5,354 nucleotides of DNA, taken from a virus (Duplodnaviria > Heunggongvirae > Uroviricota > Caudoviricetes). The DNA is taken from the IMG/VR virus record IMGVR_UViG_2778261639_000001, positions 1-5,354 of that record; one strand, given 5' to 3'. Positions 1 to 5,354 of the stretch are shown piece by piece. Made by a program: the position numbers and the translations under genes. Under the pieces are notes generated by a model. The model was not told the DNA's origin and did no database searches. It saw only the letters and a program-made list of their open reading frames with translations. Positions within the stretch are counted from its first letter, which is position 1; the number at the start of each line of letters is the position of its first letter.

Positions 1-184
1 TAACATTGGCTTACAACTCATAACAAAAGCAATTCAATGCCGTCAAGAGGTTACAGGCTAAAAAAACTCTATTACATTGCAGTCAGCATGTTTACTACAC
101 AAATACAATTCAGAGCATAAAAACTACTCGGCGGCAGGTTATTGAGACTCATCAATGACATGTAAAAAACGCCCATTATTGGTG

Positions 185-216
185 TCAAGTTTCCCCAAAG
201 TTATTCAAAAAGTCAA
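185..216 (-). promoter_or_regulatory. Putative late promoter pR' / qut region downstream of Q
   Basis: Minus strand reads TTGACT (plus 211-216), a 17-nt spacer, then GAAACT (plus 188-193). The first ~60 nt after the Q stop match my recollection of lambda up to the -35 hexamer; the -10 and initial transcribed region differ. The -10 is a poor match to consensus, so exact promoter elements are uncertain. Confidence 0.4.
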
Positions 217-258
217 TATTATGCCGTTAATATGTTGCCATCCGTGGCAATCATGGCG

Positions 259-882
259 CTAACGTGTGATCGCATTCAAAATGTTGTCTGCGATTGACTC
301 TTCCTTGTGGCATTGCACAACCAGAGCGTCATACAGCGGCTTAACAGTGCGTGACCAGGTGGGTTGGGTAAGGTTTGGGATTAGCATCGTCACAGCGCGA
401 TATGCGGCGCTTGCTGGCATTCTTGAATAACCGACGCCTTTACATCTTCCGCACTCTTTCTCAGCAACTATCCCCCACTGCTCTGTTTTGGCTATATCAA
501 CCGCACGGCCTGTACCGTGGCAATCTCTGCATCTTGCGCCCGGCGTAGCGGCACTACGGCAATAATCCGCATAAGCGAATGTTGCGAGCACTTGCAGTAC
601 CTTTGCCTTAGTATTTCCTTCGAGCTTTGCCACACCACGGTATTTCCCCGATACCTTGTGTGCAAATTGCATCAGATAGTTGATAGCCTTTTGTTTGTCG
701 TTCTGGCTGAGTTCATGCTTACCGCAGAATGCAGCCATACCGAATCCGGCCTGTGATTGTGCCATCCCCATAGCAGCCATCACATCAGTACCGGAAAGAG
801 AGTCAGAAGCCGTGGCCCGTGGTGAGTCGCTCATCATCGGGCTTTTTGGCGAATGAAATTTAGCTACGCTTTCGAGTCTCAT
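259..882 (-). CDS. Q: Late-gene antiterminator Q (lambda type)
   Basis: 207-aa product is near-identical over its full length to lambda Q as I recall it (MRLESVAKFHSPKSPMMSDSPRATASDSLSG...). ATG at 880-882 overlaps the ninH TGA stop (ATGA); TAG stop at 259-261. Confidence 0.95.
   Translation of the reverse strand: MRLESVAKFHSPKSPMMSDSPRATASDSLSGTDVMAAMGMAQSQAGFGMAAFCGKHELSQNDKQKAINYLMQFAHKVSGKYRGVAKLEGNTKAKVLQVLATFAYADYCRSAATPGARCRDCHGTGRAVDIAKTEQWGIVAEKECGRCKGVGYSRMPASAAYRAVTMLIPNLTQPTWSRTVKPLYDALVVQCHKEESIADNILNAITR
582..614 (+). promoter_or_regulatory. paQ-like CII-dependent antisense promoter inside Q
   Basis: Plus strand has TTGC-GAGCAC-TTGC (582-595), a perfect TTGC-N6-TTGC CII-binding motif, then 13 nt, then TAGTAT (609-614) followed by TTCC. 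This is the same geometry as lambda pRE as I recall it (TTGCGTTTGTTTGC-13nt-AAGTATTTCC). It lies antisense within the Q coding region, as lambda paQ does. Confidence 0.55.
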
Positions 883-1067
883 CGTCTTCCCCTCTTGCCC
901 TGTTTGACCATCAGGACGCCGTTAACTATTACATGACGCTCGCCTTTGCTGTCTCGGTTGTACTTGAGCACTGTTCCTCTTGCGCAGGAAAGCATCCTTG
1001 CCACTTCGGTCTGATTGCCTCGTGTATGGATAAGAAGCTCTGGTATCGTTTGAATTGTGGCGTTCAT
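879..1067 (-). CDS. ninH: NinH (small HTH protein)
   Basis: 62-aa product shares the core GNQTEVAR..RGTV.KY....G..H.IVN.VLMV with lambda NinH as recalled. ATG at 1065-1067 overlaps the rusA TGA stop (ATGA). Confidence 0.85.
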   Translation of the reverse strand: MNATIQTIPELLIHTRGNQTEVARMLSCARGTVLKYNRDSKGERHVIVNGVLMVKQGKRGRR

Positions 1068-1426
1068 GCGTTCTCCAGTTCGGTGATTTTTATTCCAAGC
1101 CTTCCGCCTGGTACTTTCACACCACGAATTACGCGAATGTCATCGAATTGCTCGTCGTCTTCCGCAAATCCGGCGTGGATAAGGGAGTCGAGTAAACCTT
1201 TCAGGATGTTATCGAGGTCGCGGCGGCGGGAGTCTGGAACGTCTGCGATGACTTTGATGCGGAGTCGTGATTTGGTGAAAATATCTAACTTGAGTTGGTG
1301 GATGATTTGCTGAACGTCTTTTCGGTATTTCTGGCCTTTATCGCTGATGTAGTATTGGCTTCCCCGTCTTCGCCAGTAGGTATTCAACGACGGCGGGTAT
1401 GGAAGCACAAACTGATATTCGTTCAT
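1064..1426 (-). CDS. rusA: Holliday junction resolvase RusA
   Basis: 120-aa product has RusA hallmarks (LP.PPS.N.Y, RRRDLDN, GGRL) and the same length as E. coli RusA. ATG at 1424-1426 overlaps the upstream TGA stop (ATGA). Confidence 0.9.
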   Translation of the reverse strand: MNEYQFVLPYPPSLNTYWRRRGSQYYISDKGQKYRKDVQQIIHQLKLDIFTKSRLRIKVIADVPDSRRRDLDNILKGLLDSLIHAGFAEDDEQFDDIRVIRGVKVPGGRLGIKITELENA

Positions 1427-1713
1427 GACTTAATCTTCCCCTCCTTCAGCAGTATCGCCTGCGTCCTGATCACGCCTTCGAGGTGGTAAAGTCTGGCATC
1501 TTTGTTGTCGATAATCATTGTGCGTCGGTCGATTTCATCGTGACACGCGCTACAAGCCCATGCGCCGATCAGGTCGTCAGGCTTCATTCCCGTTCCGCAA
1601 ATTCCAGCCATCCGGTAATGTGCCAGAACTGTAGTTTCAGGATTGCCATTGCATACGCCGTAAATACGTACCTGGCATTCTCTGCCGCGCGCTTCTTTGC
1701 GTAGGTTAGCCAT
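1423..1713 (-). CDS. ybcO: YbcO-like DUF1364 protein (putative zinc-binding nuclease)
   Basis: 96-aa product resembles DLP12 YbcO as recalled (RGRECQVR..GVCNGNPET.VLAH.R..G.CGTG.KP.DLI...CS.CHDEIDRR), with conserved Cys/His ligands. ATG at 1711-1713 overlaps the upstream TAA stop (TAATG). Confidence 0.75.
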   Translation of the reverse strand: MANLRKEARGRECQVRIYGVCNGNPETTVLAHYRMAGICGTGMKPDDLIGAWACSACHDEIDRRTMIIDNKDARLYHLEGVIRTQAILLKEGKIKS

Positions 1714-1982
1714 TATGGTTCACTCCAGTAATTCTCAATTGCAGCAGCCATTCTCTGCATCCACTCAGCCAGCTTTAACGCAGCTTCTCTTTCAGAACCA
1801 CATTTAGGGAAATCCTTCATTTCCATGCTGGCCTTATATGTTCTGAATGCCAGGTCTCCGGTAATAACCAACTCCTGATCAAGCACCGAGCGTTTATTCC
1901 GGTGTTGAACGTAATAGACAGATTCAGTCCGCATTTCTTCTCTGTCTTTTTTGAAGGAAATAAGCTCAGAGAAATCACTCAT
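1713..1982 (-). CDS. Hypothetical protein (89 aa), no family assigned
   Basis: ORF embedded in the operon: ATG at 1980-1982 lies 2 nt after the ninF stop, and its TAA overlaps the start of the next gene. I could not assign a family from memory. Confidence 0.6.
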   Translation of the reverse strand: MSDFSELISFKKDREEMRTESVYYVQHRNKRSVLDQELVITGDLAFRTYKASMEMKDFPKCGSEREAALKLAEWMQRMAAAIENYWSEP

Positions 1983-2145
1983 CGTCTTCTTCCTCGTACA
2001 TTGAGCTATTCGGATCGCTCATCAGTTCTGCGCAGCAGTGCTCACATACGTGAACTTCCAGCACATGCAGCTTCTGACCGCAGTTAGCGCACGTTAAAGC
2101 TCGCTCGACGCTTTCTTGTTCGTAACTTCGATTTTGGTCAATCAC
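1975..2145 (-). CDS. ninF: NinF (Cys-rich small protein)
   Basis: Product matches lambda NinF core as recalled ([45 protein letters not shown]). There is no ATG in frame. I place the start at GTG 2143-2145, which overlaps the ninE TGA stop (GTGA) and has GAGGA 7 nt upstream; the ORF track's 2187 start is also a GTG but has no such support. Confidence 0.75.
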
Positions 2146-2324
2146 CTTGTTTTCCTCGCACGATTTCTTAGCCACCGGATATCCCACAGGTGAGCCGTGT
2201 AATTGAAGGTTTTTACGTCAGATTCTTTTGGGATTGGCTTGCGTTTATTTCTGTAGCGTTTCGTTGGAAGGTATTTGCAGTTTTCGCAGATGATGTCGGT
2301 GAAACTTCGTCGCTGTCGCCTCAT
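2142..2324 (-). CDS. ninE: NinE
   Basis: Product from the internal ATG (2322-2324) is [52 protein letters not shown]..., which matches lambda NinE as recalled. AGGAGG lies 6 nt upstream, and the ATG overlaps the methyltransferase TGA stop. The ORF-track start at 2414 is a TTG inside the methyltransferase gene and is rejected. Confidence 0.85.
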
Positions 2325-2848
2325 GCCGCCCTCCTGACGCCCTGCCCGATCGCCATCAATGCCGCTTTGGATACGGTAGTAAACATCCGTCGAGGACTGA
2401 TGAACGGTCGCCAAATCAGCAGCATGGAGCCTTTACTGTTTCCCTTCTTCTCCAGCCCTGTCGATGGTTCGATAAAATTAATCCGTCCATCAGTGATAAT
2501 GCGAACTTCGTCAACACTCTCCAGAGCCTTGCTGAACCATCCGACAGACATATCCTCTGGCACAAGCATCACTACCGTCTGTCGCTGTTGTATGCACTGC
2601 TCAGCGGCTTTTTCCACCCACGGCCTGATATTGCTGTACGGTGGGTTATTCCAGATTGCACCGTGGCTTATCCACTCAGAATTGAGTGCGTCGTCGGCCT
2701 CAGTTAGCCAGTGAGCGCACAGAGCATTTTTGTCGCTCGCAGCTGAATCCAGCCAGAATCCAAACTCAATATCCAGCGCATCAAAAAGCCAAAGCGGCGT
2801 TTGCCAGCAGTCCTTGTCGTGTGCTGGTGTATTTGATTTGATAGTCAT
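2321..2848 (-). CDS. Phage-type DNA N6-adenine methyltransferase (orphan MTase)
   Basis: 175-aa product has the N-terminal DCWQTP motif and the NPPY catalytic motif typical of the phage Dam N6-adenine MTase family. ATG at 2846-2848 overlaps the ninB TGA stop (ATGA). No restriction endonuclease partner is present in the window. Confidence 0.8.
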
Positions 2849-3291
2849 GCAGCCCTACCTTTTCGTTGTGACCATTCATACTCTCGCCGGGAGTCATCAC
2901 TCCACCGCACGTTGCGCTCTGAGCCGAACCAAAACATGATTTCGATAAGCTCAGTCATGCTGGCCTTTCGCATTTTGCTGGTACGCACGCCAAGCATGAC
3001 AACGCCACCATCGATACCAGGCACACTTCGTTGCTCCAGTTTTTTGGTCTTAAGCCACAGGGCAGTGAACAGGTCTTTCCAGTCCTCCGGCGCAAGTCTC
3101 TGTCCATGCCAAAGCACCTGACGTGATACGTCCTGCAATAACGCCCACATAAGGCGGTTTTGAGGATTGCTCCGCTTTGGTTCTTTAATGTGGACTTCGT
3201 GAGGTGACTTGTCGTCGATCGGAAGTGAGAGTATTGCGTCTATGGCGTTGTTTCTGATTGCTTCGTTGCGAAGCATGTATATTTGCTTCAT
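2845..3291 (-). CDS. ninB: NinB (Orf-family recombination mediator)
   Basis: Product resembles lambda NinB as recalled (...NAI.A......P.....RS..QNR..WA.L.DVSRQV.WHG..L....WK..FTA......MRK....ELIE....FG.ER.V.WSD......EW..R.G.RAA). I take the ATG at 3289-3291 as the start, with GAGGTG 5 nt upstream; the track's 3297 start is a GTG two codons upstream. Confidence 0.85.
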   Translation of the reverse strand: MKQIYMLRNEAIRNNAIDAILSLPIDDKSPHEVHIKEPKRSNPQNRLMWALLQDVSRQVLWHGQRLAPEDWKDLFTALWLKTKKLEQRSVPGIDGGVVMLGVRTSKMRKASMTELIEIMFWFGSERNVRWSDDSRREYEWSQRKGRAA

Positions 3292-3298
3292 TGTCACC

Positions 3299-3505
3299 TC
3301 AACTCACAAAACGCCACGCCATTTTTGCTACAGCGACAGGCGCAACACCGATAATCACCCACAGGAAAATGCTACCGAAAAGCACACCAACCAGGTCTTT
3401 ACCTTCGCCTACCAGCCGGACAAAACTGCTGGCAACCACAATGAACGTCGCCACCATCCACATAGCACCGAGAATCCTCAATGCAGAAAAAATCAACTCA
3501 ACCAC
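3299..3505 (-). CDS. Hypothetical small membrane protein (68 aa, two predicted TM helices)
   Basis: Start is GTG at 3503-3505, preceded by a strong SD (GGGGGAGAG, 6-nt spacer); an internal ATG at 3461-3463 is an alternative. Two hydrophobic stretches (LIFSALRILGAMWMVATFIVVASSFV and LVGVLFGSIFLWVIIGVAPVAVA). TGA stop is 7 nt before the ninB ATG. No family recognised, and the overlapping plus-strand ORFs are low-complexity. Confidence 0.45.
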   Translation of the reverse strand: MVELIFSALRILGAMWMVATFIVVASSFVRLVGEGKDLVGVLFGSIFLWVIIGVAPVAVAKMAWRFVS

Positions 3506-3520
3506 GATTTACTCTCCCCC

Positions 3521-3552
3521 AAATAAAAAGGCCTGCGATTACCAGCAGGCCT
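3521..3552 (-). terminator. tR2-like rho-independent terminator between ren and the nin region
   Basis: Minus strand reads AGGCCTGC-TGGTAATC-GCAGGCCT, a perfect 8-bp stem (6 GC pairs) with an 8-nt loop, followed by TTTTTATTT. It sits 26 nt downstream of the ren stop, the same position as lambda tR2 as I recall it. Confidence 0.55.
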
Positions 3553-3577
3553 GTTATTAGCTCAGTGATGTAGATGG

Positions 3578-3868
3578 TCATCTTTTAACTCCATATACCG
3601 CCAATACCCGTTTCATCGCGGCACTCTGGCGACACTCCTTAAAAATTAGGTTCGTGCTCATCTTTCCTTCCCGTTCTTCCTTGGTAGCAAACCGGTAATA
3701 CACCGTTCGCCAGACCTTACCTTCGATAACCAGAAGACCTGCCCGTGCCATTTTAGCCGCGGCCTGATTTATGCTGGTTACTGTTGCGCCTGTTAGCGCG
3801 GCAACGTCCGGCGCACAGAAGCTATTATGCGTCCCCAGGTAATGAATAATTGCCTCTTTGCCCGTCAT
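3578..3868 (-). CDS. ren: Ren
   Basis: 96-aa product is near-identical to lambda Ren as recalled (MTGKEAIIHYLGTHNSFCAPDVAALTGATVTSINQAAAKMARAG...). ATG at 3866-3868 overlaps the P TGA stop (ATGA). Confidence 0.9.
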   Translation of the reverse strand: MTGKEAIIHYLGTHNSFCAPDVAALTGATVTSINQAAAKMARAGLLVIEGKVWRTVYYRFATKEEREGKMSTNLIFKECRQSAAMKRVLAVYGVKR

Positions 3869-4566
3869 ACACTTGCTCCTTTCAGTCCGAACTTAGCTTT
3901 GAGTTCTGCGATCTTCGCCAGAGCCTGTGCACGATTTAGAGGTCTACCGCCCATGACAGGAAGTTGTTTTACTGGTTCAGGGATCGCCTCACCACGGTTA
4001 ATTCTCGCAGTCATATGGACAAGCTCATCTGCGGCCTTACGGCGTAATTCCGCATCAGTAAGCGCATTGGCCCGCATGTTCTGATACAGGTTGGTAACCA
4101 GCCAGTAGTGCGCGTTTGATTTCCACGGATAAGACTCCGCATCCGGATACAGGCCTCGCTTCCGGCAATACTCGTAAACCATATCAACCAGCTCGCTGAC
4201 GTTTGGCAGTCCGGCGATAACGGATGCTTCTTCCCGGCACCATGCAACAAACTGCCCGGGTGATGGCAGGAATGGTCGATTCTGCCGACGGGCTACGCGC
4301 ATTCCTGCGTTAACCTGTTCCATTGTGGTGATCCCGTTTTCCCGGAAAGCCAGAACCCACTGGCGGCGGATTTCGTTCAGTTCGTTCTGGTCACGGTTAG
4401 CCAGGCTCGCCGGGAAAGTTGCCAGTAACTGGCTGAACACACCGTTGATGATCTGCGCTACCTGTTGTACCTGCGGCTTTTCGTCGTACTGTTCCGGCAT
4501 GTTGTTGGCGATCCGACGCATCTGCTCACGGTCAAAGTTAACCATCTGTGCGGCGATGTTTTTCAT
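3865..4566 (-). CDS. P: Replication protein P (DnaB helicase loader)
   Basis: 233-aa product is near-identical to lambda P as recalled (MKNIAAQMVNFDREQMRRIANNMPEQYDEKPQVQQVAQIINGVFSQLLATFPASLANRDQNELNEIRRQW...). ATG at 4564-4566 overlaps the O TGA stop (ATGA). Confidence 0.95.
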   Translation of the reverse strand: MKNIAAQMVNFDREQMRRIANNMPEQYDEKPQVQQVAQIINGVFSQLLATFPASLANRDQNELNEIRRQWVLAFRENGITTMEQVNAGMRVARRQNRPFLPSPGQFVAWCREEASVIAGLPNVSELVDMVYEYCRKRGLYPDAESYPWKSNAHYWLVTNLYQNMRANALTDAELRRKAADELVHMTARINRGEAIPEPVKQLPVMGGRPLNRAQALAKIAELKAKFGLKGASV

Positions 4567-5277
4567 AAATCCACCCCGTAAATCCAGTCAGTGTTTGTCA
4601 GGTCGAGTTTTGGTTTGCTGGCTGTCACGCCTGCCTGTTGCTTGTTACGGTTGATTTCGAGCTGGGTCCACTTGTCGCGGAGTTTGGCCGGACTCAGCAC
4701 GTTACCGGACCAGAAGTTGTCCTGGCAGGCCCAGCGGAAAAGCACACACATATCGCGGTGGTTACGTCCGTCACGTTCACGCATCAGGCGGATATCGTTA
4801 GCCCACCCTGCAAAATTCGGTTTTCTGGCTGATGGTGCGATGGTCTTCACCATGTCAAACATCCACTCTGCGGCGGTCAGGTCTTCTGCTGTTCCCCACT
4901 TGCTGCCGCTCTGAATTGCAGCATCCGGTTTAACCACAGAAAGATCGTTTTCTGGCTGGTCAGAGGATTCGCCAGAATTCTCGGACGAATAATCTTTTCT
5001 TTTTTCTTTTGTAATAGTGTCTTTTGTGTCCCCCTGTTTTGAGGGATAGCAATCCCCTAATTTGAGGGATGTTTTATCCCTCGTTTTAGGGGATTTTCCC
5101 TCGTTTTGAGGGATGTCCCTCATTTTAGGGGAACCTCCCTCGTTTTGAGGGATGCACCATTCTGAGATGTTTTTATTTGGTCCAAACATGCCGCCTTGCT
5201 GCTTGATAATATTCATTCTGACGAGTTCTAACTTGGCTTCATTGCACCGTTTGACAGGTAACTTTGTAATCTCGCTA
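4563..5277 (-). pseudogene. O: Replication initiator O, 3' portion; 5' part separated by an IS insertion
   Basis: Minus-strand frame encodes ...SEITKLPVKRCNEAKLELVRMNIIKQQGGMFGPNKNISEWC...DNFWSGNVLSPAKLRDKWTQLEINRNKQQAGVTASKPKLDLTNTDWIYGVDL, matching lambda O from about residue 76 onward as recalled. Homology stops at 5277, where IS sequence begins. The frame stays open into the IS but encodes a hydrophobic, non-O peptide. The ORF-track start at 5216 is only an internal Met. Confidence 0.85.
5029..5153. repeat. ori-lambda iterons (six O-binding repeats) within the O coding region
   Basis: Six ~17-nt palindromic repeats with consensus TCCCTCGTTTTGAGGGA start at plus 5029, 5053, 5077, 5097, 5116 and 5136. 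They are flanked at 4986-5028 by an AT-rich stretch (AATAATCTTTTCTTTTTTCTTTTGTAATAGTG) that fits the DNA-unwinding element. Lambda has four iterons as I recall. Confidence 0.85.
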
Positions 5278-5354
5278 TGAACCGCCCCGGGAATCCTGGA
5301 GACTAAACTCCCTGAGAAAGAGGTAAACAGAATGACTAAAAATACTCGTTTTTC
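5278..5354 (+). mobile_element. Left end of IS629/IS1203-like insertion sequence (IS3 family), truncated by the window edge
   Basis: TGAACCGCCCCGGGAATCCTGGAGACTAAACTCCCTGAGAAAGAGGTAAACAGAATGACTAAAAATACTCG matches the left inverted repeat and orfA start of IS629-type elements as I recall them. It begins abruptly where O homology ends. Confidence 0.8.
5332..5354 (+). CDS. IS3-family transposase OrfA, N-terminal fragment only
   Basis: ATG at 5332-5334 is preceded by AAGAGG and encodes MTKNTRF..., the recalled N-terminus of IS629/IS1203 OrfA. The CDS continues beyond the window. Confidence 0.7.

Follow-up and report, generated by a model that had tools for sequence, protein, structure and literature searches.

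The replication origin of bacteriophage lambda (ori-lambda, 39034-39118 of NC_001416) is located within gene O and has four iterons. Kozlowska et al. 2020 (PMC7466680) reported 6 iterons, against the 4 of lambda, in the origins of the Stx phages P27 and 933W, as a consequence of which the O proteins of these phages are 13 residues longer; the comparison between Stx and lambda iterons dates back to Nejman et al. 2009. In gel shifts, the lambda, P27 and 933W O proteins each bound every single iteron, and in vitro all three proteins bound both four- and six-iteron templates. When the entire six-iteron origin was footprinted with DMS, only the four iterons beside the AT-rich region were strongly protected, the two distal extra iterons being weakly bound. 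Transformation with a P27-derived plasmid was abolished when iteron 1, iteron 1' or the two together carried synonymous mutations (<10 vs. 5 x 10^4 transformants per µg). The authors proposed two roles for the extra iterons, an increase in the local concentration of O or the stabilisation of a looser O-some, and they also suggested that the 13 residues serve as a spacer by which the O-some is loosened. A lambda-type origin requires transcription that passes through ori or close to it (introduction of PMC7466680).

The DNA analysed in this work (hereafter the window, 5,354 bases) corresponds to the early-right region of a lambdoid prophage in reversed orientation, as judged from its open reading frames and Pfam matches. 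The following genes were identified, all of them on the minus strand:

259-882, minus strand: lambda-type antiterminator Q (Pfam match)
879-1067, minus strand: NinH (Pfam match)
1064-1426, minus strand: RusA (Pfam match)
1423-1713, minus strand: YbcO-type protein (Pfam match)
2321-2848, minus strand: Dam-type methylase (Pfam match)
2845-3297, minus strand: NinB (Pfam match)
3578-3868, minus strand: Ren (without Pfam match; name taken from related loci)
3865-4566, minus strand: P, 233 aa, helicase loader acting with O at the origin (Pfam Phage_lambda_P, E = 5e-62; related-locus annotation)
4563-5277, minus strand: O, 3' part, codons 76-312 of a 312-codon Stx/P27-type O (partial Pfam Phage_rep_O match; protein alignment)

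P, which is encoded downstream of O, is intact according to its Pfam match, and no stx gene was found within the 5,354-base window. We are highly confident in the overall account given below, namely that the window carries a known six-iteron, O-dependent lambdoid prophage origin inside the minus-strand O gene, together with the mechanism, history and orphaned state proposed for it.

Iterons were searched with the 17-base consensus TCCCYNNWTTTNRGGGA, allowing up to 1 mismatch, across all 5,354 bases. Six matches were obtained on the plus strand (5030-5046, 5053-5069, 5077-5093, 5097-5113, 5116-5132 and 5136-5152), with start-to-start distances of 23, 24, 20, 19 and 20 bp, and the search returned no further site in the window. 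The number of matches expected by chance was 0.01, and the observed count was reached in 0 of 200 shuffles. An earlier pattern, TCCCYYNWWWWNRRGGGA, matched only 2 sites; it was mis-specified and was replaced by the 17-mer. The units, of about 18 bp each, have inverted-repeat character (dyad symmetry TCCCTC...GAGGGA) and are all located (5030-5153) inside the O reading frame (4563-5277, minus strand). On the promoter-distal side they are directly adjoined by an AT-rich region. The misc_binding features of 933W were placed on the window by adding 4162 to their locus coordinates, giving the following arrangement:

4981-5028, unstranded: AT-rich unwinding region (29% G+C vs. 50% in the window; same in lambda, 933W and phage 21)
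5030-5047, minus strand: iteron nearest the AT-rich region, lambda iteron 4, 933W 'ori iteron 6' (pattern match, 933W misc_binding mapping); same as in lambda
5053-5070, minus strand: lambda iteron 3, 933W iteron 5 (pattern match, 933W mapping); Stx-type 1-base difference from lambda (A for G, in the O sense), which is iteron 3* in PMC7466680
5077-5094, minus strand: lambda iteron 2, 933W iteron 4, first iteron of repeat copy A (pattern match, alignment, 933W mapping)
5097-5114, minus strand: lambda iteron 1 (1'' or 1 in the literature), 933W iteron 3, second iteron of copy A (pattern match, alignment, 933W mapping, PMC7466680)
5116-5133, minus strand: extra iteron 1', 933W iteron 2, first iteron of copy B, absent from lambda (pattern match, alignment, 933W mapping)
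5136-5153, minus strand: extra distal iteron, 933W iteron 1, same sequence as the iteron at 5097-5113 (pattern match, alignment, 933W mapping)
5077-5154, unstranded: 39-bp tandem repeat in two copies (5077-5115 and 5116-5154) with 4 mismatches (Tandem Repeats Finder, alignment)

Window positions 4940-5277 were aligned with the corresponding stretches of 933W, phage 21 and lambda. The window was the same as 933W at every aligned position, while exactly 39 bp were missing in lambda and phage 21, which otherwise showed only a few single-base differences, one of them in iteron 3. Ori-lambda shares with the window its location in O, the iteron consensus and the dyad symmetry, and the AT-rich region and iterons 1, 2 and 4 are the same; by contrast, the 39-bp unit with its two iterons and 13 codons is missing from ori-lambda, and iteron 3 shows a one-base difference. 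In GenBank, lambda and phage 21 are each annotated with four iterons. The 933W record lists six, named 'ori iteron 1' to 'ori iteron 6', and these map onto window positions 5030-5153. Over 156 nt (5020-5175) the window is 100% identical to 933W, P27, BP-4795 and many Stx1a/Stx2a phages, and the oriStx of 933W, P27, BP-4795 and H-19B have the same six iterons, the same spacings and the same 13-residue insert, IPQNEGGSPKMRD.

The initial annotation, made from the letters of the window, had placed a lambda-type origin in this part of gene O, with six iterons against four in lambda, and had considered it probably a known variant of Stx phages. The location was confirmed by the alignment, the iteron array and the AT-rich flank, and the consensus search and GenBank annotation agreed on the six iterons. 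Lambda was found to have four by both annotation and alignment, which settles the doubt expressed there that lambda itself might have six. The alignment with lambda, 933W and other Stx-phage origins that had been recommended assigned the window to the six-iteron Stx type, the 39 bp being absent from lambda. The variant was indeed known: the 933W record annotates six iterons, and PMC7466680 reports both the 6 iterons and the 13 residues for P27 and 933W. Judged by its sequence, the origin is the already known six-iteron form of the lambda replication origin (oriStx type), and no feature of the window speaks against this identification.

There are also differences. Unlike the Stx phages, the window is devoid of stx, the prophage closest to it in backbone is non-Stx and has a lambda-type Q, and the O gene of the window is interrupted by an insertion sequence (IS). 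The O fragment has Ser where 933W O has Gly, which identifies it as a P27-type O. As the P27 origin is 100% identical to the window over the 156 nt, the published results transfer to the DNA sequence of the window. The footprinting, the comparison of four- and six-iteron templates and the iteron-mutant plasmid tests that had been suggested for this DNA are already published (PMC7466680). Stx prophage replication is medically relevant, because toxin production depends on it, but the window adds no new information on the six-iteron variant.

The window origin would work in the manner established for lambda. Dimers of the O initiator would bind the 18-bp dyad-symmetric iterons (established lambda biology and PMC7466680), the bound O would wrap the DNA into an O-some, straining the AT-rich region at 4981-5028, and P would deliver the host DnaB helicase at the strained region. 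According to the published data on the same sequence, the four iterons beside the AT-rich region would be the strongly occupied core, and the distal pair, weakly bound as it is, would still be needed for replication of the P27 plasmid.

Tandem Repeats Finder detected the repeat with a period of 39 bp and 2.0 copies at 5077-5154 (89% matches, no indels). In the best register (5077-5115 vs. 5116-5154) the copies have 4 mismatches (5083 G/A and 5094-5096 TTT/ACC), one at an iteron centre and three at adjacent bases in the inter-iteron spacer. Period-39 matches were 35 of 39, compared to a best value of 24 of 39 in 500 shuffles of the window. The direct repeat had initially been described as 5076-5114 and 5115-5153 with about five mismatches; there are exactly 5 in that register, which is the codon register. 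It had also been described as in frame and as adding 13 aa to O, and this proved correct: the minus strand of 5115-5153 encodes IPQNEGGSPKMRD, which was present in 933W O and absent from lambda O and phage 21 O in the protein alignment. The six-iteron-type O has 312 aa, compared to 299 aa in lambda O, and its gene measures 939 nt (312 codons) in the closest backbone with an intact O; the O of the window is truncated.

None of the solved structures matches O by sequence, and for this reason the position of the insert was judged by the Pfam domain boundary. The insert corresponds to residues 117-129 of the 312-aa 933W O, and Pfam Phage_rep_O covers residues 22-115. The iterons of the O gene encode residues from 117 onward, just past this N-terminal domain. 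The 39 bp might have been kept for the 13 O residues, the extra DNA repeats being passengers without a role as binding sites. The published footprints, in which the two distal iterons were barely bound, agree with this, as does the suggestion that the 13 residues loosen the O-some as a spacer. However, the mutations in iterons 1 and 1' that abolished P27 plasmid transformation left the O amino acids unchanged, and each single iteron was bound in gel shifts (PMC7466680). We therefore regard a purely protein-level role of the 39 bp as very unlikely.

To analyse the distribution of the six-iteron origin, window positions 5020-5175 were used as the query, and matches with at least 99% identity were considered six-iteron. 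This threshold was reached by 72 of the 140 matching phage records, mostly Stx1a and Stx2a phages; the remaining matching phage records were four-iteron matches, either divided into two pieces or partial. In complete E. coli genomes there were 1327 matching records, and 357 of them reached it (approximately 27% of the lambda-type origins), and a single E. coli genome harboured up to 5 lambda-type origins. An assembly artefact, mentioned in the initial annotation as a possible source of the extra repeats, is hardly conceivable. Assemblers can miscount short tandem repeats, but the same 156 nt are present in phages sequenced independently over 25 years (933W, H-19B, BP-4795 and P27) and in the independently sequenced 72 phage and 357 E. 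coli records, and intact copies keep the O reading frame.

The best backbone match was E. coli Z1323CEC0005 (chicken, South Korea), with 100% identity over window positions 1-5277 (locus 9001-14277). Its prophage is lambdoid and has an intact O, and no stx annotation was found between Q and the lysis genes of this prophage. The presence of the six-iteron origin in this non-Stx prophage indicates that the variant is not confined to Stx phages; the 'Stx' belongs to its name and is not a property of the origin itself. Locally, it is useful to know that the variant is common, accounting for about a quarter of the lambda-type origins in complete E. coli genomes, and that it is not Stx-restricted.

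Among the phage records, the one named 'Campylobacter phage CJLB-4' (MW057783.1, 48,361 bp) had an origin match with the same coverage, identity and four-iteron two-piece pattern as lambda. This record, about as long as lambda, looks like lambda contamination or mislabelling.

The origins of the Salmonella phages ES18, g341c and Oslo are 87-96% identical to the window, and each has four iterons with the 23/24/20 spacing of lambda. Four iterons are thus widespread and six appear derived, a polarity that rests on three fairly close outgroups; the comparison favours six iterons as the derived, duplicated state. The opposite history, in which six iterons are ancestral and recombination or slippage between the copies removed one 39-bp unit from lambda, phage 21 and their relatives, was also considered. 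Mechanistically, tandem copies are lost by deletion as easily as they are gained by duplication, the differences at 4 of 39 positions between the copies indicate that the repeat is not recent, and the pair remaining in lambda is the same as copy A, as a clean loss of copy B would likewise leave it. On the other hand, the more distant origins of ES18, g341c and Oslo have four iterons with lambda spacing, and the six-iteron records examined all share one sequence, as expected for a single derived allele. We consider the loss of a unit unlikely. Under the preferred reading, the six-iteron form would go back to a single event, in which the two promoter-proximal iterons were duplicated in tandem as a 39-bp unit. 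The duplication would have been tolerated because 39 is a multiple of three, so that only 13 residues were added, directly after the DNA-binding domain of O. The form would then have spread by recombination among Stx and non-Stx lambdoid prophages, as the shared sequence of the six-iteron records suggests.

A second change in iteron number was found in E. coli O157:H7 Z1486 (locus 711-817), which has five iterons generated by a 23-bp tandem duplication of iteron 3 and its spacer. This five-iteron variant, present in a cryptic prophage of O157:H7 Z1486 and F6294, is an origin of the same type as that of the window, and its iteron number was likewise altered by local tandem duplication. By contrast with the 39-bp in-frame unit of the window, its unit has 23 bp, which is not a multiple of three, and O is annotated as frameshifted in Z1486. 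As the origin is also coding sequence, a working initiator is retained only if the length changes by a multiple of three, as with 39 bp. The second, independent change in Z1486 agrees with this and supports a frame constraint on changes in iteron number. In the distribution analysis, 75 E. coli records fell in the 80-90% identity band and may be this five-iteron variant.

The O gene of the window is interrupted. In the alignment with full-length O, its reading frame is matched only from residue 76 onward, and codons 1-75 are missing from the window. Matches to genomes with an intact O end at 5277, and from position 5278 the sequence reads TGAACCGCCCCGGGAATCCTGG..., with an ATG at 5332. In RefSeq, an IS1203-family element is located at the same junction in other genomes, and the IS portion of the window, comprising the terminal repeat and the start of the transposase, shares 97% identity with the IS1203 copies annotated at this site. 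The additional feature of the window is the following:

5278-5354, plus strand: left end of an IS3-family element assigned by sequence to the IS1203/IS629 type (terminal repeat TGAACCGCCCCGGG; transposase ATG at 5332)

Elements of this type are characterised by the terminal inverted repeat, by a transposase in two parts joined through programmed frameshifting, and by duplication of 3 bp of the target. The window contains one end of the element, and the far end and the CTA duplication were seen only in related loci. E. coli O157:H7 F8798 has a Stx1a prophage in which the 5' portion of O that the window lacks is present beyond the IS, with the CTA target duplication. The O fragment of the window covers only positions 57-95 of the 95 positions of the Pfam Phage_rep_O profile (the last 39), which indicates that the cut lies inside the DNA-binding domain. 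The IS at 5277/5278 therefore leaves the origin without an intact initiator gene in cis, P being intact. The truncation of O at this point was passed over in the initial annotation, and the 13 aa described there as added to O are, in this DNA, part of a gene fragment rather than of a complete initiator gene. A match in ETEC4085 was considered as a further case of the same IS junction and was rejected: its IS3 element lies in the nin region, O is intact and the origin has four iterons.

The origin of the window is intact as DNA, and the IS cuts it off from the upstream pR side. Most likely, it would be silent unless a co-resident lambdoid prophage supplies O, and the prophage is probably replication-defective unless another prophage does so; locally, the IS-broken initiator gene is useful in that it probably marks the prophage as such. 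It is also conceivable, with a modest chance of being right, that the origin is active despite the broken O, fired in trans by the O of another lambdoid prophage as a dependent replicon. Neither the iterons nor the AT-rich region nor P is damaged, an E. coli genome can carry as many as 5 lambda-type origins, and in vitro the lambda, P27 and 933W O proteins all bind templates with four as well as with six iterons (PMC7466680). Against this, the O protein is short-lived and is made in low amounts. Moreover, the IS separates pR from the origin, and an origin of the lambda type requires transcription passing through it or nearby (PMC7466680). An origin that would ordinarily be silent is the reading we retain.

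The same junction, in the same orientation and as an unbroken match, was found in 3 complete E. coli genomes among the matches listed (O157:H7 F8798, Z1323HEC0393 and O157 AR-0430) and in 4 Stx1a phage records (LC727896-LC727899). In F8798 the CTA site and IS ends are at positions 6580-6600 and 7890-7905 of the locus (L005), and the genes neighbouring the junction differ between F8798 and Z1323HEC0393. In O157:H7 F6294 (locus L012, 2535-2550 and 3845-3860), IS1203 is inserted at the same CTA in the opposite orientation, in the five-iteron prophage. The occurrence of both orientations at the same CTA indicates independent insertions, at least two, and suggests that the CTA in O may be an insertion hot spot for IS1203/IS629. 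A literature search for IS629 in the prophage replication protein O returned nothing.

The 77 IS bases of the window have 2 differences from each of two IS copies at the same junction (F8798 and Z1323HEC0393), in a mosaic pattern. Separate insertion events involving slightly different copies would account for this, as would gene conversion between IS copies. A broader proposal, to which we give a slim chance, is that the CTA at O codons 75/76 is a recurrent IS1203/IS629 target (at least 2 independent hits) whose interruption makes prophages non-autonomous, with an intact six-iteron origin and P that could be replicated in trans by the compatible O of a co-resident prophage. If this were true, IS hits at O codons 75/76 would represent a route to prophage domestication or to helper-dependent amplification.

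An internal ATG at 5216 on the minus strand (Met96 of full-length O, MNIIKQQGG...) opens a 217-aa ORF (4563-5216). Its product would be an O fragment without most of the DNA-binding domain and with the C-terminal part.
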